A stretch of DNA of 64,000 nucleotides from Escherichia coli. GTDB taxonomy: Bacteria; Pseudomonadota; Gammaproteobacteria; Enterobacterales; Enterobacteriaceae. Where the stretch lies: the NCBI RefSeq assembly GCF_024502345.1, contig NZ_JALDNN010000001.1; one strand, given 5' to 3'. Of the stretch, positions 785 through 28,906 are shown in pieces (positions within the stretch are counted from its first letter, which is position 1; the number at the start of each line of letters is the position of its first letter). Below the pieces are notes generated by a model. The model did not search any database, was not told the DNA's origin, and saw only the letters and a list, made by a program, of their open reading frames with translations. The translations under genes and the position numbers were made by a program.

Positions 785-957
785 AAAGTTCTTTGACGTT
801 GCATTGCTGGCGTAAATGTCAGCAATGCAGCATTTCCTCACGATTCTCCTTTGACGATCGCACTTTTTGCTCGTTATGATGGCGTCGCTAGCCTCAGTAA
901 ATCCTTACTCCGGCGGTGCGCAACCCGTGCGCGTGAACCACTATCTGAATGCTCATC

Positions 958-1930: not shown

Positions 1931-3643
1931 CTCCACTTCCTGCCAGTTTTTCCGTTTACTGGTTTTACCGATCCCCGGATTCATGCTGTTGGTCGGATCG
2001 TTCTCGCGATAGAACTTCTGCAACGTCTCCGGTGCTTTATACAAATGACCGACGTTATGCTCGGCAGGGTACTGCGCGCCGCGCTGCTGTAGCAGTTCCA
2101 GCATCTGTTCTTTTAACGCATGCACATCCACGCCTTTTTTCACTATGTAATCCTGATGGAAGACATAGCACATAAAATGGCCGTAATAGAGCTTGTGCAC
2201 CAGCTGGCTGTCGATCTCCGGCGGTAAATGCTCATACCACTCGGTGTCGTTACGCCGCAGAGCGATATCCAACGCCAGAATGTCTTCGACTTCATCGGAA
2301 TGCACCGCCTGATAACGAATTGCTGCGCCCGCAGCGGCGAAACGGTGTAAAAACGCTTTGCTGCCTTCCTCCGGCGTACAGACAAAGAAATCGCCTTCGG
2401 CCTGTTTGAAATAATCTACCAGCCACGATTTGGCTTCACCGACGCCATCGCCCGCCATTTTTAACAGCAGATGATGCTCGTATTTATCGCGCCAGTTTTT
2501 CATGCGCGGCGGTAAATGGCTGGGGAACAGGTGACCGAATTTTTGCATCGCACGGTCAGTAAAATGCGGACGGAAGAATTTCACTTTCTCCAGCATCGCA
2601 TCGGTGCGTCCCTTGAGATTAAAGAAGAACGGCATCTTGTCGGTGCCTAACTTATCAATCATCAGGAAGGTGTCTTTGCCGTATTTTTCCGCAATATCGT
2701 AGATATCCCGGTGCATATATTCCCCGGCAACCGGCAGATTTTCGAAGTTAGCCAGAATATGACGGCGGATTTCGGTCAGCACTTCCGGCTGGTTGGTGCC
2801 GATATAAAACACCTGCTGATTTTTTTCCGCCTCGAAGGTATCAAGACGTACTGCAAAGACGGCCAGCTTCCCGGCGCAACCAGAAGATTCAAATAACCGA
2901 TCCGGATCGGCGTTATAACGTGCGGGCGTGTCGGCTTCAATATCACGAACGCGGTGGACATAGTCATAATCGTGGGCGTGACGACCATCGTGACGCACAT
3001 CGTCATCTTTGATGCGATCATCATCCAGCTTGCTAAGGATCTGCTCCGGCGTTTCGCCCAGATCAATCCCCAGATGGTTCACCAGCGTCAGTTTGCCGTC
3101 TTCATTTATACGCGCGAATAACGACATTTCGGTATACGCCGGGCCACGTTGCACCAGCGAGCCGCCGGAGTTGTTACAAATACCACCGATGACCGATGCG
3201 CCTATACACGATGATCCAATCACTGAGTGCGGTTCGCGTCCCAGCGGTTTGAGGGCTTTTTCCAGCGAATAGAGCGTGGTGCCCGGATAGGCCAGCACCT
3301 GTTCGCCCTTGCCGAGAACGTGCAGCTTGTCGAGACGCAGGGTGCTGATGATCACGATATCGCGATCATAGTCGTTACCGTTTGGCGTCGATCCTTCGGT
3401 CAGGCCTGTATTGGCAGCCTGCATCAGAATAATTTTGTCGGCGGTGACGCAGGCTTTCAGCACCCGCCACAATTCCAGTAGTGAGCCAGGGAAAACGACA
3501 GCCAGCGCGTCGCCCTGACCAGAACGGAAGCCCTTGCGATAGCGAGCCGTTTTTGCGGGATCGGTGAGCAGGTGTGAATGACCGACCAGACGGGCAAGTT
3601 CATTCAAAAAGGCTTTATTATCAGTTGTTGTCATGGAAGACAT
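1928..3643 (-). CDS. dld: FAD-dependent D-lactate dehydrogenase
   Basis: ORF 1928..3676 trimmed to MSSMTTTDNKAFLNEL (571 aa), matching Dld as I recall it. Confidence 0.9.
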   Translation of the reverse strand: MSSMTTTDNKAFLNELARLVGHSHLLTDPAKTARYRKGFRSGQGDALAVVFPGSLLELWRVLKACVTADKIILMQAANTGLTEGSTPNGNDYDRDIVIISTLRLDKLHVLGKGEQVLAYPGTTLYSLEKALKPLGREPHSVIGSSCIGASVIGGICNNSGGSLVQRGPAYTEMSLFARINEDGKLTLVNHLGIDLGETPEQILSKLDDDRIKDDDVRHDGRHAHDYDYVHRVRDIEADTPARYNADPDRLFESSGCAGKLAVFAVRLDTFEAEKNQQVFYIGTNQPEVLTEIRRHILANFENLPVAGEYMHRDIYDIAEKYGKDTFLMIDKLGTDKMPFFFNLKGRTDAMLEKVKFFRPHFTDRAMQKFGHLFPSHLPPRMKNWRDKYEHHLLLKMAGDGVGEAKSWLVDYFKQAEGDFFVCTPEEGSKAFLHRFAAAGAAIRYQAVHSDEVEDILALDIALRRNDTEWYEHLPPEIDSQLVHKLYYGHFMCYVFHQDYIVKKGVDVHALKEQMLELLQQRGAQYPAEHNVGHLYKAPETLQKFYRENDPTNSMNPGIGKTSKRKNWQEVE

Positions 3644-14769: not shown

Positions 14770-16773
14770 TCATCCTTGTTGCTGAAGCATGGGGAATAAT
14801 TGTTCGCACAGCAAAACGCAGTTATTCATTGCTTCTACCCGTGCCTCGCTTTCTGTATTACGAAATTGTCCCAATACATGTGCCAGCCGATAAAAAACCA
14901 CCGCGGTGAGGTCATTCGCCAGCAACTCTGCCTGACCAATAGCACTCTGTTCCTGATAGCGCCAGCCGTTATGGAGCAGTTGAATAAGTAATGCCTGGCA
15001 GCGCATCAGCAACTGATGAGCAGTAGACGGCACAGGCAGAACGCTGACAGAAGGTAGTGATGCCACCACAGGCGCAGTTTCTGCGTCCAGCGCCCAGGCA
15101 CGAGTCTTTGTCATCATTACCTGTGGTTCCAGTGTCAATTGCCCATCAACAAAACTGACAAAGCCAGAAACCAGACACACGGGGTCGTCTGTTTGTTGCA
15201 AAAGCGCCGCCATGCGTTCAATGGCATAAGGCGCGCTGGCTGAGGCTGGCAGTGATAACGTCAGCAGATTATCTTCACCTTCGCCGCTGATTACCTGCGC
15301 ATCCAGCGTCTGGCGGCTGCTATCCCAACCGAGCGAAATACACTCAGCGACCGGCAGAATAAATAAGTTATCGACCTGATTAAGAGGCCGTATGCAGGAG
15401 GGGGGACGCTGGCGTAAATATTCCCGCAAAGCCACAATGCCCGGCTGGCGTAACGGCGCGCTCAACATTTGCCAGGCATCAGGCGACAGCGGCACAACGC
15501 TGCTTAAGCGGTTGCGGGTAGCTAACAGCAGCTCGCCATCGGCACTGCGTTTTGCTGCTTGTGAAACAATTTGCCCACCCGCCAGTGCGCCAGCCTGAAA
15601 ACTAAACAGCCGACGCGTAGCTGCCGGTGAGTTTTCCTGTTCACTTCGCGGCCAACTGCGCGAAAGGTGCAAAATACTGCCGGTGTCGGGATCGGTAAAC
15701 CAGATGCGTAAACCATAATGCTCAATATCCTGCCAGCAACGCATACCTAAAGACACCAGCCGCAGATGATCAAGCTTTGCTTCTCCGGCAATGCCAGAGC
15801 CAACGACCGTGCGCCACGGCACAGGAGGAACTTCACCAACACTGTCGCGCCGCGCCATCTCTTGTGCGCAATTTAATCGACTGTTTAATGCCGCAAGCTG
15901 ACGTAAGCATTCTCCGGCATGATAGTGGCTGGCGCGGGCGTGGAAGGCATCAACGCTGGCGCGCAGTTGCCGTAGCGATTCACTCACCCATCGCCAGTTG
16001 CAGCGTTCCGCTGCTTGCTGCGCGCGGCTGAAAGCGGCCTCGTAGTGAATAAGCGGCTGGCTGATGCCGCCCAGCCATAATGCCTGGCTTAGTTGCTGAA
16101 CATATTGACGACACGTTTTGCCTTCTTCGCTGGCAAACAGATCGTCAGATGATGTGACGTGTTCGCTGCGCATCTGCCAGATTAAATGAGTCAATTCCGG
16201 TTGCTGCGCTTTTGCCTGGACAAAGGCCTGTACTGCCAGTACGACATGTTCGCAAAGTGTGCCTTCAATACAATCACAACGGGCGAAACGAATGCTGCTA
16301 CGGGAATAAAAACGCACATCGCTCATCGGTAAGCGGGCAGAGGGAATTTCGCCCGGCGTACAGAACAACTCAATGGTGATGCCTTTAGCGACCAGCGCCT
16401 GCGCGCGTTTGCGGGTGGCATCGGGCAGGGTAGCCAGTTCTTCCAGCCAGATTGCCGGATCCCACTCTTCTTCTTTTTCTGTGGGCTGGACGGTGGCACA
16501 AAGTCGTTGATAACTTAACACCAGCATCACGCGATGACGGCACATGCCGCTGGCCCCGCAGCTGCACTGAGCCTCTTTCAGTGCCTGGCCGTTCGCCAGC
16601 TGGGTACGGACACCGTCACTGAAGGTGGCGATTAAAGCGCCGTTCTCATGGCTGATCTCCGGGACGTTGCCATTTTCCAGTTCCTTAAGACTGCGCTTAA
16701 CAAAACCGGCATTGCTTAACGCTGTCAGGGCCTGCGGTGTCAGTTCTAATAATTCCGGACGTAGTGAATTCAT
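14770..16773 (-). CDS. yehQ: SWIM zinc-finger domain protein
   Basis: CxC...CxH SWIM motif (QCSCGASGMCRHRVM); start chosen at ATGA overlap with yehP stop. Confidence 0.8.
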   Translation of the reverse strand: MNSLRPELLELTPQALTALSNAGFVKRSLKELENGNVPEISHENGALIATFSDGVRTQLANGQALKEAQCSCGASGMCRHRVMLVLSYQRLCATVQPTEKEEEWDPAIWLEELATLPDATRKRAQALVAKGITIELFCTPGEIPSARLPMSDVRFYSRSSIRFARCDCIEGTLCEHVVLAVQAFVQAKAQQPELTHLIWQMRSEHVTSSDDLFASEEGKTCRQYVQQLSQALWLGGISQPLIHYEAAFSRAQQAAERCNWRWVSESLRQLRASVDAFHARASHYHAGECLRQLAALNSRLNCAQEMARRDSVGEVPPVPWRTVVGSGIAGEAKLDHLRLVSLGMRCWQDIEHYGLRIWFTDPDTGSILHLSRSWPRSEQENSPAATRRLFSFQAGALAGGQIVSQAAKRSADGELLLATRNRLSSVVPLSPDAWQMLSAPLRQPGIVALREYLRQRPPSCIRPLNQVDNLFILPVAECISLGWDSSRQTLDAQVISGEGEDNLLTLSLPASASAPYAIERMAALLQQTDDPVCLVSGFVSFVDGQLTLEPQVMMTKTRAWALDAETAPVVASLPSVSVLPVPSTAHQLLMRCQALLIQLLHNGWRYQEQSAIGQAELLANDLTAVVFYRLAHVLGQFRNTESEARVEAMNNCVLLCEQLFPMLQQQG

Positions 16774-17906
16774 GACTGAAGATTCTCCGCAAGCCATGAT
16801 GCCAGTTCGCCCGGTGTCATGGCGGCTATTTGTGCGCCGACATTAACCAGCGCCTGGGCCGTATCGCGGTCATAGCAAGGCGTTGCTGTGCTATCGAGCG
16901 CCGCCAGTCCCAGCACTTTGATGCCGCTCTGGACACACTTTTTCACCTGATGCGTCAGCAATGATGATGAACCCCCTTCGTAAAAATCGCTCACGAGGAT
17001 AATGACGCTTTTTGCTGGTTGTTCAATAAGTTGCCGACCATATTCCACGGCACTGGCGATATTGGTCCCGCCGCCCAACTGTACTTTCATTAATAACTCT
17101 ACCGGATCGGCAACGTCTGCCGTGAGATCAACGACGCTTGTGTCAAACGCCACCAGATGGGTACGAATGCCGGGTAACTGCCACAAACAGGCCGCCATCA
17201 CCGCAGAGTGGATCACCGAGTCCACCATCGATCCGCTTTGATCAACCAGTAAGACCAGTTGCCATTGTTCACTGTGGCGTTTAATGCGGCTGTTAAAGCG
17301 GGGGGATTCGATATACAACTTGCCGTGTTGCGGGTGCCAGTGTTGCAGGTTGGCGCGCAGAGTACTTTTGAAATCAAAGTTTCGCGCCAGTGGAATAAAT
17401 GAGCGGCGACGGCGATCGCGGACACCAGAAAAAGCCTGACGAACTTCCTTTGCCAGTCGAGCCATAATTTCTTCAACAACCTGGCGCACTATCCGGCGGG
17501 CGGCAGCCAGTACTTCGGGGTTCATCAGATGTTTGGTGTGCAAAACGGCGCGTAGCAGACTTTCAGAAGGCTGCATACGTTCCAGCACGTCGAGATTCGT
17601 CACCACATCTTCAATGCCGTAGCGCAGTACGGCATCGCTTTCCAGCCGCTCAATCACCTGTTGCGGAAACAGCGTGTGAATACTGTTGATCCACTCAGGG
17701 GTGGTGAGATTTGAGCTACCTAATCCACCGGAACGTTCACCACGCTGGAGCCGTTCAGGATCGCGCCCATACAGCCACTCCAGCGCGTGGTCTATCTGCC
17801 GGGCGTTGTCATCCAGCCCACAAAGCGTCGTTTCTGCCGCTTCGCCAAGAATTAATCGCCAGCGTTGTAGCTCACGGGTGGTCAGAAGATCGTTCAGTTC
17901 AGACAT
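16770..17906 (-). CDS. yehP: von Willebrand factor A (VWA) domain protein
   Basis: MIDAS motif DQSGSM; ORF trimmed to MSELNDLL start, 5 bp from yehM stop. Confidence 0.85.
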   Translation of the reverse strand: MSELNDLLTTRELQRWRLILGEAAETTLCGLDDNARQIDHALEWLYGRDPERLQRGERSGGLGSSNLTTPEWINSIHTLFPQQVIERLESDAVLRYGIEDVVTNLDVLERMQPSESLLRAVLHTKHLMNPEVLAAARRIVRQVVEEIMARLAKEVRQAFSGVRDRRRRSFIPLARNFDFKSTLRANLQHWHPQHGKLYIESPRFNSRIKRHSEQWQLVLLVDQSGSMVDSVIHSAVMAACLWQLPGIRTHLVAFDTSVVDLTADVADPVELLMKVQLGGGTNIASAVEYGRQLIEQPAKSVIILVSDFYEGGSSSLLTHQVKKCVQSGIKVLGLAALDSTATPCYDRDTAQALVNVGAQIAAMTPGELASWLAENLQS

Positions 17907-20178
17907 GGAAAACTCCCCAGTTTTGCAGCGATGCCAGTGCCTGCTGTTCGAGTTGTTGATGATGTGCAATGGCTTGTGGTGGACAATGCAACGGCATTTG
18001 CAGCGCCGAAACGGGAAGTTGCGCCAGTTGATAATGCTCAAGCACCTGATGCGCCAGCGTCCCGCGTTCTCGTGGTGGTAGCCAGGCCATCGCCGCGCGT
18101 AAATCGGGCAGGGCATTGATAAAATTGGCATCACTCAGTTGATTTAAATGACTGCTGAAACCGGCGATAAATGCCGGCTGACAGGCCAGTTGATGGCGGG
18201 CCAGCGCCAGCAAACCGTGCAGCGCTTCGCCGGATTGTGCCGGGGATAACTGCGCCAGCATCGTCAGCGCCGCTTCGGCACTAGCGTTGGGATGTTCCAG
18301 ACGCATCAGTGCGCCAAGAGCCGCGCCGCGATCCAGCGCCGGGGCATGGATTGCCTGACTGCGTCGCTCCAGTAAGGCTACCGCCGCAGAAAGAGAAACG
18401 CCGGGTAAATTAACGCCGCTATATAGATCGCGCAGGATATGGCAAAGCGCCTGCCAGCTATGCATGTGAGCGTGAAACTCCTTTTCATCTGGTCTGCCGT
18501 TAGATTCACACAGCCACAGCGTGCGATCGATAGCCGCGCATAACGTCGTTTGTAATATCTGCGCGCCTTGCATACCGCTAATTTCATCCAGCCGCCATAA
18601 GGCATATAGCACTTCCAGCGCCTGGCCCATTTCGGCAAATTGATTTTCCTGGGCGATTAATAATGTGAGTTGCTCCAGTAATTGTTGACTGAAGGACGCC
18701 AGACCCGCTAACGCCGCCTGGCTAAGACATGTGGTGATACTGCCGATTCCACCCGCGTCCAGCATATCGGTTTCTAATTTATGGCGTGCGGCTTCCTGGA
18801 GTGTGGCACCAAAGCAGGCGGCCTCAATCAATGCCGCATGCTGGCTAAGCGGGCGGGTTAATTTCCAGCGTTCTTCACCGTTGCCTGCAAGTGTCAGTGT
18901 GCTTCCCTGCTGGCGTACAATCCCTGGGATCTCCAGTATTGCCAGCCGATGTAACACCTGACTTTGCGCTAGTCCATTGGGGTTAAAGCGATTTAAGGTA
19001 AGCTCCGCCGGAAGAGAGATTGCGGTACGTTCCAGTTCGCAGGTGACATCTTTTGGCAGAGGCGGTTGTGGCGTAGAAGGGGCAAGTTTACCGAATCCGT
19101 CACCCGCTAATGTGTCTATCAACGTTAGCAGAATCGGATCGGTATCGGGATGAATAACGCCGCGATAGCTCCATGGCAACGGCGCATTCAGGGATTCTTT
19201 AATCAGCGAGCCTGCTAAGGCATCCAGCCAGTCAGTGCGTAACGGTAGTGTATGACCGCGCAACTGTGCCAGCGCCATCGCATGCAGATGAGCGGCAGCC
19301 ATATCCGCGGTCGAAGCAGGCAAGTGGTGTTGGCGCAAACGGGTAAGAACCGTTTTTAGCAGTTGTTCTCCCGCCTGCTGTAAGCCCCACTGCCAGCACC
19401 AGCTTTGCCAGACCGGGGCAGGCATTCCTGAAAGGTATCCTGCCAGCACATCAAGGCGCTTTTCACTGTAGGGTGTGAGATAACAACCTGTAACGGCATC
19501 TGCCAGCGAGGGCAATTCTGGCTTGTTAATGTCCTGCGGACATTCGCGCCACATTTTTGCCAGTGCCGGAGCGTGCCAGCCACCGCAGACGACTAACACG
19601 TCGCCATTGTTTTGCTGCATCGCCCATGCAATCCAGCGGGCCATGAAGGCTTCGCGCTGACGATTGAGAGCATCTCCGGGGGAATCGCCCCGCAGTTGTG
19701 CAAAATAGTGCGCCAGCGCAGAGGGTAATGCAGTTTGCTGGCTTTCATCTTCGAATAAGTGATCCCACAGGGTATCGCTGTTATCCATGCGGGTGGCACG
19801 CAGCAGTAAGGTCTGGCTTTCATCTTGCGTATCAGGCGAATCGTTCTCTTCTTCACTCTGCGCCCAGCAAGGCAAATCGATGAAGTAAGTTTATGCCTGA
19901 ATACGACGTGCGGCTTGTAGCGCCTGCCACTCCGGCGAAAATTCAGCAAATGGCGTCCAGGCACCACGCCCGGGGGCCGCACCGTCCTGATACTGGCAAT
20001 AACTGTAAATAGCTACCGGAAGCTGGTGGGCTAAAAACAGTTCGTCTACCCGGTCATTAAAATCAGCCGGGCCTTCAATCAACACGTATCGTGGCCGCTG
20101 GCTTTCGATTAATGATTTGACCAGCCGGGCGCAGGCCGGGCTATGATGCCGGATGCCGACAATTAACGGCTCGCTCAT
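17899..20178 (-). pseudogene. yehM: yehM interrupted by in-frame TAA (codon ~97 of 760)
   Basis: ORFs 19891..20346 and 17899..19875 share one frame, separated only by TAA at 19891..19893; total span 2280 nt = 759 aa + stop. Confidence 0.75.
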
Positions 20179-20188
20179 GCATCTTTCC

Positions 20189-21277
20189 TCACGGCAGGCG
20201 GTGGCGGGCTTGATAATAAGCCTGCCAGTGAGCTTCTTTATGTGTGGCGACACGCTGTTCGAAGTAACGGCGCAGACGAGCGCGATCTTCTTCGTTATCT
20301 TTGACGATGGTTCCGGCAATACAGTCCACCAGATCGGCTGGCTCACCTGCGCGATTCGCTAAAAACCAGGCGCGGACGCCCACAGCGTGGGCCACGTTCA
20401 CGGCTTCAGCGGTGGACATAATCGCTGTTAGTGTATCCATTGACGTTTTCTTTTCGCCGTTGGCACGCAGATCGCGGAAGGTGCGGACCAGTAACTCCAG
20501 TACCGCGTCAGGCACTTTATGCGGAATACCGCTATGGGCCAGCAAACGCGCCGAAGCACTGGCGACAAGCTCCAGCTCCTGGGCGAAATCCATAATCGGA
20601 AAGACAGTTTCAAAATCGAAGCGACGCTTTAGCGCAGCACTCATTTCATTGACGCCGCGATCGCGGGTATTGGCAGTGGCAATAATATTAAAGCCTTCTC
20701 GCGCATAGAGCTGACTGGCTTCACCAGTGAGTTCCGGCACCGTCATCACCCTGTCAGAAAGCATACCTAACAGACAGTCTTGCACTTCCAGCGGTGTACG
20801 CGTTATCTCTTCAAAACGGACGATTTTGCCGTCGCGCATTCCCTGGTAAAGCGGGGCAGGGACCAGCGCTTCCGTTGATGGACCATGATTGATAAGCAGG
20901 GCGTAGTTCCAGCCGTACTTGATTTGATCTTCGGTAGTAGATGCGCCGCCCTGGATGGTTAACCCGGCATCGCCGCTAATAGAGGTTGCCAGTAATTCAG
21001 ACAGGAGAGATTTTGCGGTGCCAGGTTCCCCCACCAACATCAAACCGCGTCCGGTGGCAAGAGTGACTAACATACGTTCGACAGCGGAGGGACTAATCAC
21101 CACTTTACGGCTAATATTTTGCGCGCTATCGCCAAGGATAAAAGCACGGGCCGCAGGCAAACTTAACTGCCAACCGGGCGGGCAAGGTGCGTTATCATTT
21201 TGTTTTAATTTTGCCAGTTCATCGGCGTATAACACAGCAGCAGGCGGACGCTGCAGATGATTATTCTGCGGTGACAT
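20189..21277 (-). CDS. yehL: MoxR-family AAA+ ATPase
   Basis: Walker A GEPGTAKS, MoxR/CbbQ-like core; ORF trimmed to MSPQNNHLQ (362 aa). Confidence 0.85.
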   Translation of the reverse strand: MSPQNNHLQRPPAAVLYADELAKLKQNDNAPCPPGWQLSLPAARAFILGDSAQNISRKVVISPSAVERMLVTLATGRGLMLVGEPGTAKSLLSELLATSISGDAGLTIQGGASTTEDQIKYGWNYALLINHGPSTEALVPAPLYQGMRDGKIVRFEEITRTPLEVQDCLLGMLSDRVMTVPELTGEASQLYAREGFNIIATANTRDRGVNEMSAALKRRFDFETVFPIMDFAQELELVASASARLLAHSGIPHKVPDAVLELLVRTFRDLRANGEKKTSMDTLTAIMSTAEAVNVAHAVGVRAWFLANRAGEPADLVDCIAGTIVKDNEEDRARLRRYFEQRVATHKEAHWQAYYQARHRLP

Positions 21278-21385
21278 ATATTCATCCCTGAAATGTATTA
21301 ATGAAATAAACGATATTTTACGCGCAATAAATGTTTGGCGCATTAGTTGTTTGAGCGAAAAATATCTGGAAAGCAGATCACAGTA

Positions 21386-21471
21386 AATAAAAAAACCTGC
21401 TGGTGAGGCAGGTTCTTTTATTTACTATTTTCAGGCCTAACACCACAGCCTGTGCAACATCGTGTTCCAAC
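21386..21471 (-). ncRNA. candidate Orz-like antitoxin sRNA (copy 1)
   Basis: minus-strand promoter (-35 TTGCAA 21501..21506, 17-bp spacer, -10 TATAAT 21478..21483), intrinsic terminator at 21386..21413; 5' end complementary to zor 5'UTR 21618..21638. Confidence 0.55.
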
Positions 21472-21477
21472 GAACGA

Positions 21478-21528
21478 ATTATAACCACGGCTGGACCCCG
21501 TTGCAATTAAGATAATGAGATTTATAAT
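21478..21528. promoter_or_regulatory. divergent promoter pair sharing one palindromic -35 hexamer TTGCAA (copy 1)
   Basis: plus strand: TTGCAA-16 bp-TATAAT (21523..21528); minus strand: same TTGCAA-17 bp-TATAAT. Confidence 0.55.
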
Positions 21529-21709
21529 CCTGACTGTTGGGACGTTGCGCCGGATCGAACCTATTTCAAGTCCTGGCTACCGGACGGGGGGTGCTGCAGG
21601 TAGTGCCCTGATCCGGAGTGCAACATCGTGGTCCAACATACGTAAACCAGTATCGACAGGCAGTGTAAGGGTAAGGTGCTGGTGTTGCGCTCCTTAATAA
21701 GGAGAGCGG

Positions 21710-21799
21710 ATGGACTCGCTGACACAAAAGTTAACCGTGCTCATTGCTGTACTGGAGCTATTAGTGGCTCTGTTACGGTTGATTGATTTGTTGAAGTAA
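21710..21799 (+). CDS. type I toxin, 29 aa MDSLTQKLTVLIAVLELLVALLRLIDLLK (ZorO/ZorP-like)
   Basis: hand translation; GGAGAG RBS; single hydrophobic helix; ~174-nt leader from predicted TSS; near-identical copy 608 bp downstream. Confidence 0.7.
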   Translation: MDSLTQKLTVLIAVLELLVALLRLIDLLK

Positions 21800-21820
21800 C
21801 GGGCAAATTGAAACGCATCT

Positions 21821-21846
21821 AAGGGGGAAAACCGCTTCCCCCTTTA
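21821..21846 (+). terminator. intrinsic terminator of toxin mRNA copy 1
   Basis: GGGGGAA-loop-TTCCCCC hairpin followed by TTTAATAAA. Confidence 0.7.
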
Positions 21847-21995
21847 ATAAAATGATTACTGTTTTTATTAATTCATCATATAACTCATTTTTATTTATAA
21901 ATTCATCGATTTTATATTCAACGCACCATTTGACCGGGATGTGAATATTTATGTTGGGCTATTGGCAAAAAATATCTGGAAAGTAGATCGCAGAA

Positions 21996-22079
21996 AATAA
22001 AAAAACCTGCTGGTGAGGCAGGTTCTTTTATTTACTACAGTGACGCTAACTTGCTGATTGTGCAACATTTCGTACCAAC
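21996..22079 (-). ncRNA. candidate Orz-like antitoxin sRNA (copy 2)
   Basis: same promoter/terminator architecture as copy 1 (-35 22109..22114, -10 22086..22091, hairpin 22006..22022). Confidence 0.55.
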
Positions 22080-22085
22080 GAATAA

Positions 22086-22136
22086 ATTATATCCATATCC
22101 ACACTCCATTGCAATTCAGTGAGTGAGATTTATAAT
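22086..22136. promoter_or_regulatory. divergent promoter pair sharing palindromic TTGCAA (copy 2)
   Basis: TTGCAA 22109..22114; plus-strand TATAAT 22131..22136; minus-strand TATAAT (rc) 22086..22091. Confidence 0.55.
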
Positions 22137-22317
22137 CCTGCCCGTTGGGAGGTTGTGCCGGATCGGACCAATTTTAAGTCCTGGCTGCCGGACGGGTGGT
22201 GCCGCAGGCGGTGCCCTGATCCGGAGAGCAACGTTTCGTACCAACATACGTAAACCAGTATCAACAGGCAGTGTAAGGGTAAGGTGCTGGTGTTGCGCTC
22301 CTTAATAAGGAGAGCGG

Positions 22318-22407
22318 ATGGACACGCTGACACAAAAGTTAACCGTGCTCATTGCCGTACTGGAGTTATTAGTGGCTCTGTTACGGTTGATTGATTTGTT
22401 GAAGTAA
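22318..22407 (+). CDS. type I toxin, 29 aa MDTLTQKLTVLIAVLELLVALLRLIDLLK (ZorO/ZorP-like)
   Basis: hand translation; differs from copy 1 by S3T; same RBS and leader structure. Confidence 0.7.
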   Translation: MDTLTQKLTVLIAVLELLVALLRLIDLLK

Positions 22408-22428
22408 CGGGCAAATTGAAACGCATCT

Positions 22429-22454
22429 AAGGGGGAATACCGTTTCCCCCTTTA
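22429..22454 (+). terminator. intrinsic terminator of toxin mRNA copy 2
   Basis: GGGGGAA-loop-TTCCCCC hairpin + T-run. Confidence 0.7.
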
Positions 22455-22516
22455 AGAAAGCTATACTCGTCATACTTCAAGTTGCATGTGCTGCGACTTT
22501 AATTATCTAGAGTATA

Positions 22517-22834
22517 TTATTCTATTTCTTGGTTGAATATATTCTGTAGTTCACGATTAAAAATTGCTATTACAGTTTCAGGTGATTCACCTCGTAATTT
22601 CCGCTCATCAATACACTCATCTCTTATATAAATCAACGCATCATTTATTAGCGGGTCAGCATCTTCTCGATCACGTTGATGAAATGTTGGATGTAGCCGG
22701 AATCGCTCCAGTCGATAGACGGAACCTGTAAATAATTCAGAGCATTTATGGATCTCAAGTCTGAAGGAAAACGGATCTTCAGGTACAGGGACCTCATAAT
22801 CGTAAATAGCAACTAGCTCTTTTTGCACGATCAT
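22517..22834 (-). CDS. yehK: hypothetical protein YehK
   Basis: 105-aa ORF in syntenic position. Confidence 0.7.
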   Translation of the reverse strand: MIVQKELVAIYDYEVPVPEDPFSFRLEIHKCSELFTGSVYRLERFRLHPTFHQRDREDADPLINDALIYIRDECIDERKLRGESPETVIAIFNRELQNIFNQEIE

Positions 22835-22894
22835 CGCTTTCCCCGCTGGTAAGTCGTGTAGATAACGGGCAGTCGCATCACTGCCCGCTGTGTT

Positions 22895-25102
22895 TTAATG
22901 GAAAATGACGTCAGGTGCGCTTAACGCCTCACTCAAATCAAACACATCAAGTTCGGCAAAAGTGACGGATTTATTGTCACGGTACACTCGAAGAGAACGG
23001 AAGCTCATTAGCGCTTTGCTATCAACATTGTAGTGGTTAAAACCGGGTGAAAACTTAAGGACCAGCCGGTACTCGCCCAGGTCATAGACAAATGCATCCT
23101 CATAGCCTGACTCCCAGCCTTTGTATCGCATTCCCATAAGCTGCCCAACGGTAGCGGATTTACCTTCCCAGCGAGTCAGGCTGTTACTGGTTGACTCGTC
23201 AGGTGTGAGCAGCACCGTGCACCGCGCCAACTGGCGAAAAGGCGGCATAATTTCGTAATCGGCAAAAAGCTGTGCAAATTCACTGCGCATTTCTACTGTC
23301 ATTTCTAACGGGTGGGCAATGCCAATCAGAGCGTCCGCAGGCAGGTCAATTGGCTCATCTTGCGCATTGCAGAACTCCCCCTCTGCGGCCACACGAAAGG
23401 CGTTGAGTAAACAACGCGGTTCATTTGCCGGATAAGCCCCCCATATTAATCGCTGGGTAACCAGACGGGTAAAGGGATGATTAACAAACAGAGAATGAAA
23501 ATCTGCCAGCGACCAGCGTCGGGTGGTACGTAGGGCCGTTTCAAGACGCGGGAGCAGGTTTTTGCTCACCTGAGTGGCATCTTTTTTTAGCCCTTTTAGT
23601 CGGGCCAGTGCCTCGGGCGCTTTCAGTTGATCGTCATCGGCGCGCAACCGGGGAACGCTTTTCTGGCGAACGTTTTGCTGATCAAAGATAACCGGGTTGA
23701 GGTTTTCATCGAAGCGAACGGTAAACTGCCGGGGACCAAAATCAAAACTCAACGCCTGCGGATCATCAAGGCCCAGGGTTGGGACTAATCTGTCCGCTAG
23801 CTCTTCCTGGCTTAGCCCGCGATTTTCTGCGACCACCTGAAGAAATTCCGCCGCGTTATCACGTAAGGGGCGGGATTTCGCCCGTTGCGATATATGATGC
23901 AGCTGTATCAGCGCCATATCATTATTCATCAGGGTAAGGATGTTCAGGCCACTGACAGCACGGGCAGATTTGCCTTCTTGTGGCCAGCCGAGGATCTGTG
24001 TCGTTAGATCCCGTGCCGTGCTTTCGTCACCAAAGAGACTTAACGCCAGAAATGCCCAGTTGTCTTTTACGGGGGCACCAGCTTGTTGCCACGCAGTGAA
24101 GAGATCCCAGGCAAAAGCTGCCAGCGTTTGTGGCTGGCAGAACGTTTTCAGTTGTTCCAGCCCGCTATAAAAACGTCCCCCCTGGGTAAAGCGCAGCATT
24201 TCGCCGATAATTTCCAGAGCGTCATCGGTAACAGGTTGATTATTAGTGATAAGGCGCGGCCTGGACCACATTTGCGGATGCCAGAAATCAGGGGCTTTTG
24301 GAATGCGTGCCGGGTAAATCTCTATTGGACTCTGTTTAAGTAATTGTTCCAGGGCAGGCCATAGATCTGTACGCTGCCAACGATTGGCTACAGTTTGTAG
24401 CAATTCGCCATGCCCATGTTCGTAAAGTAAACGCAGGGCAAGTAATGCAGCTTCGCTTTTATCGCTAGATTTGGTGAAGACAAGAGGGATAAGTGCAGTA
24501 GCCGTATGTTCCGGCCATTGTAAAATCCACTGGCGAGCCAGATTACGCTGGCCCGCAAAACGCTGCCAGCAGCTTTCCTCTGCCAGAGAGAGATGCTTAC
24601 GCAGTCGGAGATCGAATTCGTTATAGGTTTCTGAGCGATAACCATAGCCATAATCCTCGTCCTGATACTGCAATGTCACTACCAGAGGATCACTCTCATA
24701 ACACCGCGCAATAAACTGGCGTGCAATCACCACCTCAGTCGCATATTCCAGCCCCTCTTGTTGGACGATTTCGTCGAGCAACTGTTGGCTGTCATTTTGC
24801 GCGATACAGGCTAGCGCCGCCATTGTCCGGGGCGGGATTGAGGGTTTGTGTTCGCCGATCAAGTTGATGGCCTGCGTGATGGCGGACTGCCACTCCAGTG
24901 AAAAATTTTCATAACGCCAGACAATGTTTTTTTTCTTCTCAGCTTTTTGTAGCAATTCATCACCCAGTGTCTGAATGATGCTTTCAGTGATAACAGGCAC
25001 TGGTTCGCCCGGCCAATTGCGATGGCTGAGTGGTGTTTTACCATTTTTATATTTCAGTTCCAGTTGGGCGTTATCAGCCAGCCACGGTAATTCCTTGTCC
25101 AT
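22895..25102 (-). CDS. yehI: DUF4132-type protein, shortened paralog of MolR
   Basis: 735 aa; C-terminal region clearly paralogous to MolR (FHSLFVNHPFTRLVTQRLIWGAY vs FQLFLVEHPLVRHLTRRLIWGVY); starts 10 bp after molR stop. Confidence 0.75.
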   Translation of the reverse strand: MDKELPWLADNAQLELKYKNGKTPLSHRNWPGEPVPVITESIIQTLGDELLQKAEKKKNIVWRYENFSLEWQSAITQAINLIGEHKPSIPPRTMAALACIAQNDSQQLLDEIVQQEGLEYATEVVIARQFIARCYESDPLVVTLQYQDEDYGYGYRSETYNEFDLRLRKHLSLAEESCWQRFAGQRNLARQWILQWPEHTATALIPLVFTKSSDKSEAALLALRLLYEHGHGELLQTVANRWQRTDLWPALEQLLKQSPIEIYPARIPKAPDFWHPQMWSRPRLITNNQPVTDDALEIIGEMLRFTQGGRFYSGLEQLKTFCQPQTLAAFAWDLFTAWQQAGAPVKDNWAFLALSLFGDESTARDLTTQILGWPQEGKSARAVSGLNILTLMNNDMALIQLHHISQRAKSRPLRDNAAEFLQVVAENRGLSQEELADRLVPTLGLDDPQALSFDFGPRQFTVRFDENLNPVIFDQQNVRQKSVPRLRADDDQLKAPEALARLKGLKKDATQVSKNLLPRLETALRTTRRWSLADFHSLFVNHPFTRLVTQRLIWGAYPANEPRCLLNAFRVAAEGEFCNAQDEPIDLPADALIGIAHPLEMTVEMRSEFAQLFADYEIMPPFRQLARCTVLLTPDESTSNSLTRWEGKSATVGQLMGMRYKGWESGYEDAFVYDLGEYRLVLKFSPGFNHYNVDSKALMSFRSLRVYRDNKSVTFAELDVFDLSEALSAPDVIFH

Positions 25103-25111
25103 GCTCTTTCC

Positions 25112-28100
25112 TTATTCAAACAGGGCTTCAATATCGTTAATTAGCTCGCTGGCGGTGATGGCATCGAGTACGGAGAGCTGCGCTTCCTGTGTTGAATTAC
25201 TCCCCCAGCCATAGCTTTCCGCTTTGCCTTCCCATAGCCACAGCTTGCTTAAGAGCTGCTCAGCGCTAAGTTCGGCTGGTGACATACCCACTGCAAAGCC
25301 TTCATCGATTTCCATGATTAACGACCAGCGGCCCAGAGGTTTGATCATCCAGCCGATCCAGCCTCCATCCTGTGGTTCGCCCTTTATCCAGCCTTTATTC
25401 GCCAGCCCCATTACCCGACCGCTCGGGCATTTTCTGCTTGCCCAGCGGGTCAGTTCGCTGGCATTGCGCTCGGTTTCTGTCAGGGCGTAACTGTTACGGT
25501 CGAGCTGGCGGAACGGCGGTAGCAGTTCGTAGTCGGCAAAAAGCTGCCCAAATGCGGCGGCATCCGTCGGTGATATTTCCAGAACGTGAGGAATACCAAC
25601 AGAGATATCGCCTTCCGGCAGGGTGAAAAGATCATCGTCAGCGGTGCTGTAGCTGTTATCTTCCGCTACGCGAAAGCAAGCCAGTAGCTGGTTTTCGGCG
25701 CTATAAACACCCCAAATCAGACGGCGGGTTAAGTGGCGAACCAACGGATGCTCAACCAGGAAGAGCTGGAAGTTTTCCGGCGACCAGCGGCGGCGCAGGC
25801 ACATGGCGGATTCCAGCCTTGCTACCTGCTGGGCGGCGACGGTACGCGCATCTTTTTTCAGCAATTTGTAGCGGTTAACCGCATCGTTCGCCTGTGATTC
25901 ATCATCGCTTTTATTGGGTTTAGGTAAGTCTTTCAGGCGGCTGCCGGAAACATCACGCACAAACGGTTTTAAGGTTTCATCAAAGCTGACGGTGAACTGG
26001 CGTGGGCCAAAATCCAGCAGCAACGAACCGTTATCATCCAGACCGAGATCCGGTGCTAACCGATCTTCAAGCTCCGCCACTGTCAGTTCGCGACTTTCGG
26101 CAATGTCGGCAATTTTCTCTTTCGCCCGCTCCTGTAATGCTTTGAATTTCAGTTTCTGGGCAATGCCGTTAAGCTGCATCAGGGCGATATCACTACCGAT
26201 AGCGGCGAGAATATCCAACCCAACGGTGGCGCGTTTATGCTGAGATTCGCCAGGCCAGGCGCGGATTAATGGCGTCAGTTTGCGGGCGGTGTCATCGTTG
26301 CCGAGAACACCTAACGCAATGAACGCCCAGCTTTCTTTCGATGGCGCGCCCGCAGTCAGCCAGGCGGTAAACAGATCCCAGGCAAATTCAGCCAGTGAGT
26401 CGGCGGTACAGGCATCTTTCACCTGCAATAATCCCGGATACAGAGCCTCTTCCTGAGGGAAGCGGAGCATTTCACCGAGGTGCTGGAGTGCGCTATCGGG
26501 CAGTGATTGGGCGTTTGCTTTTAATACCGGGCGCGTCCAGAGCGATGGCTGATAAAAGGCCGGAAGAGTGGGGATTTTTGTCGGGTGATTATCTAAGGGA
26601 TCGAGCGCAAGCAGAGCGTTCACCGCGTCTGTTACTTCCGGCTGGTTATAACGCCGGGCGATTTCTTGCAGTAATGGCTGATGACCATTTTCGGTAAGCA
26701 TACGCAAGGCAGCGCGGGCGTTATCCTGTGCTTCACCGGCTTTGCCGAGCGCCGCAGGCAGCAGGCCGGTAAGGGCATGTTCCGGGTATTTCAGCAGCCA
26801 GGTGCGGGCGTCTTGTCGTAGGGTTTTGAGTTTGTTGAAGGCGCGGGCGACGGCAGGAGCTAGCTCACTCGCTGCGAAGTAATTCGTGATGGGCAAGGCT
26901 TCCTGCGGATAGCGTGTAATTGAGTTAACTAAACCAGGTAAACCTTTGAGTCCAAAATGTAACATGGCGTATTCGGTATCGGTATGTGGAGATAGAGTAA
27001 GGGCATTCCATGCTTTTACTGCTTTCTCCAGCGGCAATGTTGTCAAAATCCCCAAATGCCAATAATGCCCGGTAGGTGAATGAAACACCTTAAATTCACT
27101 TATTAAGGTTGAATAATCTTCATTTAGCCATGCCTCAACTACCGCTTCGGGAGCTTTAATATATGTACCAGCGATCCGTCGTTGAAAACCCATCCTTGCC
27201 AACAGGTTGGTAGTACTTTCTTCATGGCTAACCGTGATGTGTTGTGAATACCAGATATATTTCGCCAAAAGTTGATTACTGATTTCTTCTGTCATATAAC
27301 AGATTGGCTCAATGCCTAATGGCGCTAAATCCAGCACCGGAATCGGCGATTTTTTCTTTTTCGAAAGCCATGGTGGGGAGACTACTATGGCAGGCAGTAG
27401 ATCGGCGCAGGCATGGTTTGAGGGCTGTGTCAGTTGTTGCTGGCATGATTTCAGTACGGCAACTGCGGGTGTCGAGAGCCAGGGAAGGACCTGTTCTGCC
27501 AGTGCTGGTTGTGAGATAAGCATTGTCATTAGCATAATGCGCCAACTGTTCTCTTCTTTTTGCCCAAGAAGTTCCGTCAGTGCCGCCATTGCTGCATGTG
27601 GGAACGCAGCAATGGCTTTCGTCATCCGATCGTGACAGCGTTTAGTTTGCCCGGCTACACGTATAAGCAGTGTCAATGCGACCGGATGATTGATATGACG
27701 CAACACATCGGCGCAGTAGTCACTTGCGGCATAGGGAGCAAATCGGGGCAGGGCTGCAACACCTTGCTCCTGTAATACGGTGGCTGACCATATCGCACCA
27801 CAATAGTAATCATCAAAAATGGCATATGGCTCGTGATATTTTTCTAATGAGGCAAGAATGTGCTCATCAGTCGCCACTATTTTTAACCACTCAAGCGAGG
27901 GTAATTTTTTTTGCCCCAGTAGACGCTGGGCAATTTCATGTGCAATTTCTGGTTTTTCGGGTAATAACAAAGCAATTAATGGTTGCCGCCATTCTGGAAT
28001 ATGTGGAATTGCGGCAATAAGTTTTTGTGCACATTTTTGCCAGAGAGACTCTTCCGCCAGTGATAAATGTTTACGTAGGCGTAATTCAAATCTGGAATAT

Positions 28101-28906
28101 TGCTCCAAGTAGTTAGGTGCAATGCCAGACGGCAGAATAATAATGACATTATTCGCATAATCCCATTCAATATCAATCTGTTGAAGGTGTATTATTACAT
28201 CAGTAGCATATGCCAGACCGCCTTCCTGGACGATCTGATCCATAACATCCTCACGCACTTTATATCTTGTGCATTTCATTTCAAGTGCCGTGAGTACAGC
28301 CATTACTGGTGATGGTAACTGTGTTGTTTTCAGGCCGTCGATCTGACTGATCGCCTGGGCGACGGTGTTTTGCCATTCTAAAGAACAGGCGCTGAAGTCA
28401 AATGTGGCTGTTTTATTATCCCGTTGCGACACACTACAGGCTAAGCGACGTAAGTGGGTCAATTTGTCTGCTTGCTGAACAGGAACTTCGGGAAAGCGGC
28501 GATGGCTTAACGTGGTGTGTACAACTTCGGGCGGAAAAACGACAGCAATATCTTTCGCCAGCCACGGTAAAACAGCATCTGTATTTTTGTCAGCCGCACG
28601 GGTTTCTGCTACGAAAGAGGGTTGTTCCTGAATAATGGTGGATAAGTCCGCTACCTTGAGAGAGCCCGTTACCGTTTGGGAAGGTTGCAAAGAATTATCC
28701 TTCGCTTGCTCCATATATCCCTTCTTCACCTTCTCCGCAATCAGCTTCAGTTCCGCTTTTGCCGCCGCTGCAGCATCTGCAAAGCTTTTTACCTGACTTT
28801 GCCCGTTAGTGCCGACTTTACCCCAGTTGATATGCAGCTCGTTGTCTTGCTGCTCCACCGCCCAGAATTTATGTGATTTTTCGTCCTGATAGATATAACT
28901 CTTCAT
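25112..28906 (-). CDS. molR: WGR-domain / DUF4132 protein MolR, intact 1264 aa
   Basis: N-terminal WGR-like motif (KFWAVEQQDNELHINWGKVG); internal duplicated modules; single uninterrupted ORF. Confidence 0.8.
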   Translation of the reverse strand: MKSYIYQDEKSHKFWAVEQQDNELHINWGKVGTNGQSQVKSFADAAAAAKAELKLIAEKVKKGYMEQAKDNSLQPSQTVTGSLKVADLSTIIQEQPSFVAETRAADKNTDAVLPWLAKDIAVVFPPEVVHTTLSHRRFPEVPVQQADKLTHLRRLACSVSQRDNKTATFDFSACSLEWQNTVAQAISQIDGLKTTQLPSPVMAVLTALEMKCTRYKVREDVMDQIVQEGGLAYATDVIIHLQQIDIEWDYANNVIIILPSGIAPNYLEQYSRFELRLRKHLSLAEESLWQKCAQKLIAAIPHIPEWRQPLIALLLPEKPEIAHEIAQRLLGQKKLPSLEWLKIVATDEHILASLEKYHEPYAIFDDYYCGAIWSATVLQEQGVAALPRFAPYAASDYCADVLRHINHPVALTLLIRVAGQTKRCHDRMTKAIAAFPHAAMAALTELLGQKEENSWRIMLMTMLISQPALAEQVLPWLSTPAVAVLKSCQQQLTQPSNHACADLLPAIVVSPPWLSKKKKSPIPVLDLAPLGIEPICYMTEEISNQLLAKYIWYSQHITVSHEESTTNLLARMGFQRRIAGTYIKAPEAVVEAWLNEDYSTLISEFKVFHSPTGHYWHLGILTTLPLEKAVKAWNALTLSPHTDTEYAMLHFGLKGLPGLVNSITRYPQEALPITNYFAASELAPAVARAFNKLKTLRQDARTWLLKYPEHALTGLLPAALGKAGEAQDNARAALRMLTENGHQPLLQEIARRYNQPEVTDAVNALLALDPLDNHPTKIPTLPAFYQPSLWTRPVLKANAQSLPDSALQHLGEMLRFPQEEALYPGLLQVKDACTADSLAEFAWDLFTAWLTAGAPSKESWAFIALGVLGNDDTARKLTPLIRAWPGESQHKRATVGLDILAAIGSDIALMQLNGIAQKLKFKALQERAKEKIADIAESRELTVAELEDRLAPDLGLDDNGSLLLDFGPRQFTVSFDETLKPFVRDVSGSRLKDLPKPNKSDDESQANDAVNRYKLLKKDARTVAAQQVARLESAMCLRRRWSPENFQLFLVEHPLVRHLTRRLIWGVYSAENQLLACFRVAEDNSYSTADDDLFTLPEGDISVGIPHVLEISPTDAAAFGQLFADYELLPPFRQLDRNSYALTETERNASELTRWASRKCPSGRVMGLANKGWIKGEPQDGGWIGWMIKPLGRWSLIMEIDEGFAVGMSPAELSAEQLLSKLWLWEGKAESYGWGSNSTQEAQLSVLDAITASELINDIEALFE

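Follow-up and report, generated by a model that had tools for sequence, protein, structure and literature searches.

What is encoded by two long direct repeats that lie, free of annotated genes, between yehL and yehK in an Escherichia coli genome? The question is raised by a stretch of 64,000 nucleotides (contig NZ_JALDNN010000001.1; hereafter the window), in which the repeats are flanked by yehL (a 362-aa ATPase; 20189..21277, minus strand) and yehK (22517..22834, minus strand). A preliminary description had proposed that positions 21380-22460 hold a tandem pair of Zor/Orz-like type I toxin-antitoxin modules “hidden below the ORF-size cutoff.” This phrase is fair, since nothing is annotated by RefSeq in the region. 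As to its content, the region is almost certainly the chromosomal zor-orz locus, in which two type I toxin-antitoxin modules lie in tandem between yehL and yehK: orzP/zorP is copy 1, and orzO/zorO is copy 2.

The tandem pair is an already described element, correctly recognized, and not a new one: zor-orz was discovered in 2010 (Fozo et al., 2010, NAR 38:3743) and later dissected in at least four papers, and the locus, its mechanism, the specificity determinants and the distribution over thousands of E. coli genomes have all been published. In what follows, toxicity, repression, RNase III dependence, processing and the standby effect are taken from publications on strain EDL933, while sequence identity, anatomy, and the pairing potential of cognate versus non-cognate partners come from this analysis.

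Identity of the Two Repeats

The tandem direct repeats of about 600 bp in the preliminary description are real, with a spacing of 608-610 nt. Between the copies, identity is 86% over 300 nt aligned without gaps in one repeat family and 95% in a second one, a 73-nt block containing the orz terminator. In a gapped alignment of the two copies, homology extends from about 21355/21965 through the terminators at about 21847/22455. Each repeat in the yehL-yehK intergenic region carries one 29-codon ORF on the plus strand and one divergent sRNA gene on the minus strand.

The two ORFs had been claimed at 21710..21799 (copy 1) and 22318..22407 (copy 2, MDTLTQ...), and both are found there. By exact look-up in UniProt, the copy-1 peptide, MDSLTQKLTVLIAVLELLVALLRLIDLLK, is “Small toxic protein ZorP” (ZORP_ECO57) and the copy-2 peptide is “Small toxic protein ZorO” (ZORO_ECO57); ZorP is defined as ZorO with T3S (PMC11264685). 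The copy-2 ORF is also identical to the ZorO sequence printed in PMC6669753. On the minus strand, both units match the full-length Rfam model of the OrzO-P antitoxin (RF02083) with 99.9 and 88.8 bits, where the gathering score is 60. The proposal of tandem Zor/Orz-like modules is thus borne out by the RF02083 matches, the exact UniProt peptides and the yehL-yehK site.

Which copy is which can be read from the V1 triplet at +9..+11 of the sRNA. The copy-1 sRNA starts with GUUGGAAC-ACG, with ACG as in OrzP, and the copy-2 sRNA starts with GUUGGUAC-GAA, with GAA as in OrzO. Therefore, copy 1 is orzP/zorP and copy 2 is orzO/zorO, and the peptides agree with this. The resemblance to ZorO/ZorP that had been pointed out in the preliminary description turned out to be exact for both peptides, with the assignment corrected to P for copy 1 and O for copy 2.

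The likeness to the zorO-orzO/zorP-orzP pair in strain EDL933 of E. coli O157:H7 (Fozo et al., 2010; Wen et al., 2014, PMC3919570; Wen et al., 2017, PMC5397157; RF02083) goes further. The peptides are identical, and the Orz pairing segments, V1 triplets, promoter hexamers, UTR length and RBS position are alike, as are the tandem layout and the yehL-yehK site. In a BLAST search against complete E. coli genomes, the top full-length matches have yehL/yehK flanks, O157:H7 among them; according to RefSeq annotation, these flanks are common to O157:H7, O26 and the closest-genome matches.

Short ORFs in a duplicated intergenic repeat might also arise by chance in non-coding DNA. In every frame, many overlapping ORFs are as short as these or longer, each leader having one of 60 aa; the region has no RefSeq gene, and NCBIfam has no model for the peptides. 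The exact matches to the curated ZorO and ZorP entries, however, speak against this reading. The 29-codon ORF is the best-conserved part of the repeat in the alignment of the copies, with 4 substitutions in 90 nt of which only one is non-synonymous, and AAGGAG stands upstream at optimal spacing. Furthermore, toxicity and detection by FLAG-tag have been published, so that a chance origin is refuted by experiments on the identical ZorO peptide, and its probability is practically negligible. Nothing contradicts the identification as zor-orz.

Anatomy of the zorP-orzP and zorO-orzO Modules

The features of copy 1 are as follows.

21389..21471, minus strand: orzP antitoxin sRNA gene, about 81-83 nt, with the 5′ end placed at 21471; RF02083 99.9 bits at 21389..21464
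21394..21414, minus strand: orzP terminator hairpin (−15.0 kcal/mol), then a U run
21478..21528, both strands: divergent overlapping promoters, orzP (minus, 21506..21478) and zorP (plus, 21501..21528), each TTGCAA/TATAAT
21536..21709, plus strand: zorP 5′ UTR, 174 nt, with the transcription start placed at 21536
21615..21620, plus strand: zorP standby-like motif GGAGTG within the 5′ UTR
21618..21637, plus strand: OrzP target in the zorP leader, 19 Watson-Crick pairs out of 20
21699..21704, plus strand: zorP RBS AAGGAG, +164..+169 with a 174-nt UTR, the same position as in published zorO
21710..21799, plus strand: zorP CDS, 29-aa membrane toxin, the T3S variant of ZorO; exact match to ZORP_ECO57
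21821..21847, plus strand: zorP terminator hairpin, AAGGGGGAA...TTCCCCCTT then TTT, −14.6 kcal/mol

Those of copy 2 are the following.

21999..22079, minus strand: orzO antitoxin sRNA gene, about 81 nt, with the 5′ end placed at 22079; RF02083 88.8 bits at 21999..22072
22086..22136, both strands: divergent overlapping promoters, orzO (minus, 22114..22086) and zorO (plus, 22109..22136), each TTGCAA/TATAAT
22144..22317, plus strand: zorO 5′ UTR, 174 nt, with the start placed at 22144
22216..22245, plus strand: zorO EAP region, +73..+102
22223..22228, plus strand: zorO standby-like motif GGAGAG within the 5′ UTR
22228..22245, plus strand: OrzO target in the zorO leader, +85..+102, 18 contiguous pairs including one G·U
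22307..22312, plus strand: zorO RBS AAGGAG, +164..+169
22318..22407, plus strand: zorO CDS, 29-aa membrane toxin; exact match to ZORO_ECO57
22429..22455, plus strand: zorO terminator hairpin, −17.6 kcal/mol, then TTT

We infer the transcription start sites, and expression, in the source strain: the starts at 21536 and 22144 were counted 174 nt back from the ATGs, which is 8 nt past the −10 boxes, and the 5′ ends of the sRNAs were placed 7 nt downstream of their −10 boxes. In the promoter scan, the orzP −10 box ends at 21478, 7 nt upstream of the predicted 5′ end, and the orzO −10 box ends at 22086. The spacer between TTGCAA and TATAAT is 16-17 nt on both strands of both copies, and at least 99% of zor/orz loci are reported to keep these hexamers (PMC11264685, Table 3). 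The orzO gene ends, like orzP, with a hairpin of −15.0 kcal/mol by folding and a U run. That each copy has a divergent minus-strand unit with its own promoter and terminator, as had been proposed, agrees with both the promoter scan and the folding. The predicted size of these sRNAs needs revision to about 81-83 nt from the earlier about 85 nt. As whole molecules, the Orz sRNAs fold modestly better than shuffled sequences (z about −1.95).

The published zorO leader is 174 nt long, with the RBS at +164..+169 and the EAP region at +73..+102 with the OrzO site at its 3′ end (PMC5397157), and a GGAG(T/A)G standby-like motif is conserved (PMC11264685). The leader of about 174 nt in the preliminary description matches this published UTR and puts AAGGAG exactly at +164..+169. 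An RBS is present as had been stated, but the published one is AAGGAG, which overlaps the GGAGAG that had been named. The predicted zorO transcript runs from 22144 to about 22455, i.e., about 312 nt, or about 284 nt without the first 28 nt, in agreement with the published zorO transcripts of about 310 and about 280 nt. The zor terminators had been described as strong: their hairpins are strong indeed (−14.6 and −17.6 kcal/mol), but the T tract is weak, consisting only of TTT. In the terminator scan, the orz hairpins came up solely in their plus-strand reading, and both zor terminators were missed. The short T run explains the latter, and direct folding confirmed the hairpins.

Several other candidates in the region were set aside. 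The 60-aa leader ORFs (21515..21697 and 22123..22305) and other overlapping small ORFs were rejected as genes, their presence being explained by the conserved UTR. The sub-threshold Rfam matches (STnc370, Thr and Trp leaders, a plus-strand OrzO-P match of 25 bits, and isrH at 22462..22516) are far under the gathering scores and were judged to be chance or terminator look-alikes; all of them except isrH sit on the orz terminator hairpins.

Cognate Pairing and Insulation

In each copy, the 5′ segment of the sRNA recurs in the cognate leader with one difference: 21452..21471 against 21618..21637 in copy 1, and 22062..22079 against 22228..22245 in copy 2. Copy 1 departs from full complementarity by an A·G mismatch, copy 2 by a G·U wobble. 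An antisense segment of about 20 nt with one mismatch or wobble, as had been noticed before, is therefore present, but the 5′ end of the copy-2 sRNA is 22079, not 22080. The predicted duplexes are as follows.

OrzO with zorO: 18 contiguous pairs including one G·U, −31.3 kcal/mol
OrzP with zorP: 6 pairs, one A·G mismatch and 13 pairs (19 pairs in all), −34.0 kcal/mol
OrzP with zorO: 15 pairs in the first 18, G·U counted, −20.1 kcal/mol
OrzO with zorP: 15 Watson-Crick pairs and one G·U over 20 nt with 4 mismatches, −24.4 kcal/mol

With G·U included, the counts agree with the literature, where “18 nt” is given for OrzO:zorO and “15 nt” for OrzP:zorO. In the published rule, at least 15 continuous pairs, or at least 17 with one internal mismatch, are sufficient for repression (PMC3919570; PMC11264685); applied to the present sequences, this rule is satisfied by both cognate pairs and by neither of the non-cognate pairs. 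The duplex prediction that had been suggested as a check separates them in the same way, with −34.0 and −31.3 kcal/mol for the cognate and −20.1 and −24.4 kcal/mol for the non-cognate combinations.

The V1 triplet at Orz +9..+11 is GAA in OrzO and ACG in OrzP, and zorO is not repressed by OrzP (PMC3919570). What keeps the two pairs apart is the divergence of their pairing segments, namely, at the V1 triplet (GAA versus ACG) and adjoining positions; here, the cognate pairing potential was computed, and the insulation itself is published, as OrzP does not rescue zorO. Control by the cognate antitoxin through these differences, which had been suggested from the letters, is the same as the published V1 result (PMC3919570).

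Leader Folding and the Proposed Mechanism

In EDL933, zorO repression by OrzO runs through the first 18 nt of the sRNA and does not depend on Hfq, and rescue from ZorO toxicity needs RNase III (PMC3919570). At the EAP region, OrzO is also able to prevent translation of zorO; the full-length zorO leader hinders translation, and the form shortened by 28 nt enhances it (PMC5397157). The ZorO toxin of EDL933 is located in the inner membrane; it causes depolarization of the membrane and a fall in ATP (PMC6669753).

Based on these reports, zor would be transcribed with a structured 174-nt leader in which the RBS is sequestered. Loss of the first 28 nt would, according to the literature, open the EAP region (+73..+102), and the GGAG(T/A)G motif there, a proposed ribosome standby site, would promote translation of the 29-aa inner-membrane toxin. 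Pairing with Orz would then block the standby site and trigger RNase III-dependent cleavage.

In the folding of the window sequences, the RBS is predicted to be paired in both zor mRNAs, with a probability of being unpaired of 0.07-0.11 over the full-length and 28-nt-shortened forms (0.07 in zorP). In zorP, the probability that the pairing site is unpaired is 0.29 in the full-length form and 0.49 once 28 nt are removed; in zorO, the values are 0.35 and 0.47. This predicted opening after processing is in the same direction as the published probing data, and the effect is modest.

An analogous system is tisB-istR1 of E. coli, in which a divergent sRNA has a short complementarity to a long structured toxin leader, and 5′ processing of the leader exposes a ribosome standby site that the sRNA occludes (PMC5397157). 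The sequences are, however, unrelated, and tisB is under LexA control. Moreover, the full-length mRNA is inert in translation for tisB but supports weak translation for zorO (PMC5397157). shoB-ohsC of E. coli is an organizational analogue with a like divergent arrangement and limited (<20 nt) trans-type pairing (PMC3919570). Its toxin and sRNA are unrelated to those of zor-orz, and an OhsC chimera acts on zorO only when it has the first 18 nt of OrzO (PMC3919570).

In the publications consulted, the experiments concern zorO-orzO; toxicity of ZorP, or repression or rescue of zorP by OrzP, was not found in them. By homology with the O pair, ZorP is assumed to be toxic and OrzP is assumed to repress zorP.

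Distribution, Strain Differences and the K-12 Locus

zor-orz is found in most E. coli and Shigella. A 2024 survey reported its conservation and copy number in 2,212 assemblies, 42% of which have two copies, and about 30% of E. coli are “orz-only,” having no zor but retaining orz (PMC11264685). In our BLAST searches, the region was present in 5,232 of 5,426 complete E. coli genomes. The query was covered to at least 80% in 3,388 genomes and to about 39% in most of the others, and this split fits the published fraction of “orz-only” strains.

Compared with the O157:H7 strain Z1832, the region has 7 differences in 1141 nt, none of which touches a pairing segment or alters a peptide. None of the complete E. 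coli genomes matched 100% over the 1141 nt; the best matches, of 99.7%, are O26 and O103 strains. Over 24 kb, the closest genome (99.9%) is that of a Tanzanian human faecal isolate. Two SNPs of the window have no counterpart in O157:H7, O26 or the closest genome, namely, a G>A change at 21602, which is zorP +67, and an A>T change at 22092. The position 21602 is just upstream of the EAP region, and 22092 is immediately upstream of the orzO −10 hexamer.

E. coli K-12 is a case of the “orz-only” type. Between yehL and yehK of MG1655 (positions 2550..2625 of the K-12 locus, L002), an orzP-type gene without a toxin was found with 99.9 bits. This K-12 locus (OrzPmg, PMC11264685) is at the same site as the window locus, and its Rfam alignment over the 76-nt model is identical to that of the window orzP. 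The zor ORF and the Orz pairing site are missing, and only the first 27-29 nt of the zor UTR are left (PMC11264685), in contrast to the two complete modules of the window. The earlier statement that the locus is absent from K-12 is thus true of the toxin genes, but an orzP-type antitoxin gene, OrzPmg, is still there.

Could the modules in the window be decaying relics, with transcription or regulation broken like the toxin half in K-12-type strains? Loss of zor with retention of orz in about 30% of E. coli (PMC11264685) and the K-12 remnant set a precedent. The adjoining yehM (a nonsense codon) and yehI (a 1425-bp deletion) are damaged in the window, and of the two window-specific SNPs, one falls in the zorP leader and the other next to the orzO −10 box. 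Against this, each copy retains an intact ORF, RBS, pairing segment, pair of promoters and pair of terminator hairpins, and every functional element examined is identical to that of O157:H7 and O26. Decay is therefore very improbable, and the locus is better regarded as two complete modules.

Either the strain SNPs at 21602 and 22092 may shift the balance of toxin and antitoxin, or the little-studied zorP-orzP pair may behave unlike zorO-orzO, for example with leakier repression or extra OrzP targets. The zorP-orzP duplex has its A·G mismatch at Orz position 7, and the retention of orzP only in about 30% of E. coli hints that the P pair may behave differently from the O pair. We consider the chance of either to be slim.

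Neighboring Genes

In the window, zor-orz lies inside a cluster (14770..28906) consisting of yehLMPQ (AAA ATPase, DUF5682, VWA and SWIM zinc finger) and yehI/molR-like (DUF4132) genes. A PADLOC scan of YehL, YehP, YehQ, YehK, YehI and the MolR-like DUF4132 protein for a defence island gave no match.

Two genes of the cluster are altered. yehI (22895..25102, minus strand) has an internal in-frame deletion of 1,425 bp (475 codons) compared with the closest genome, giving 735 aa versus 1210 aa. The deletion junction (24559..24569) is in a near-identical repeat of about 11 nt (AACGCTGCCAG), which suggests a microhomology-mediated deletion. yehM (DUF5682) is split after about 95 codons by an in-frame stop (minus strand, 19891..19893), with which a G>A change at 19893 relative to the closest genome coincides; yehM of the O157:H7 strain Z1832 is also annotated with an internal stop.

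Farther away, the sequence past about 33,930 (to about 34700) is multicopy in E. coli, with 82,953 places, 14,087 of them on plasmids, matched by a query that ends at 34000. This stretch, which includes a 167-aa ORF at 34178..34681, is probably an insertion sequence that breaks up the yeh fimbrial cluster. Elsewhere in the window, three plus-strand Rfam matches are above the gathering score: a Peptidase-S11 RNA motif at 873..953 (72.8 bits), a TPP riboswitch at 43981..44077 (71.2 bits) just upstream of an ORF at 44112, and naRNA4/CssrE at 51923..51993 (68.3 bits).

Physiological Role

Growth in aminoglycosides is better when zor-orz is present in multiple copies, and this benefit does not depend on toxicity, as it is also seen with a non-toxic ZorO variant. 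It has to be considered whether the main role of the locus is something other than toxin-antitoxin control, with the Orz sRNAs or stable zor mRNAs acting on other targets and the toxin being incidental. The “orz-only” loci are widespread and expressed (PMC11264685), and growth in kanamycin is still improved by the multicopy locus with the non-toxic ZorO R23L, as this idea would have it. However, neither Orz 5′ segment has a further match with up to 3 mismatches in the 64-kb window (0.00 and 0.05 expected by chance), and repression of zorO by OrzO has been shown experimentally. A main role on other targets is accordingly judged unlikely. It concerns, in any case, the physiological role and not the identity of the element, which is that of two type I toxin-antitoxin modules.

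A Validated System Missing from Annotation

For 21340..22480 and its counterparts, none of zorO, zorP, orzO and orzP is present as a CDS or ncRNA in the four RefSeq (PGAP) records inspected, and nearly all rows of the BLAST tables have no annotated feature under the match. A scan of both peptides against NCBIfam gave no family, which reflects a missing model and not the absence of a family. With neither RefSeq annotation nor an NCBIfam model, standard pipelines leave this 1.1-kb region blank in thousands of genomes. The zor-orz locus is thus a validated toxin-antitoxin system with a systematic annotation gap, and here it was recovered from raw sequence alone.
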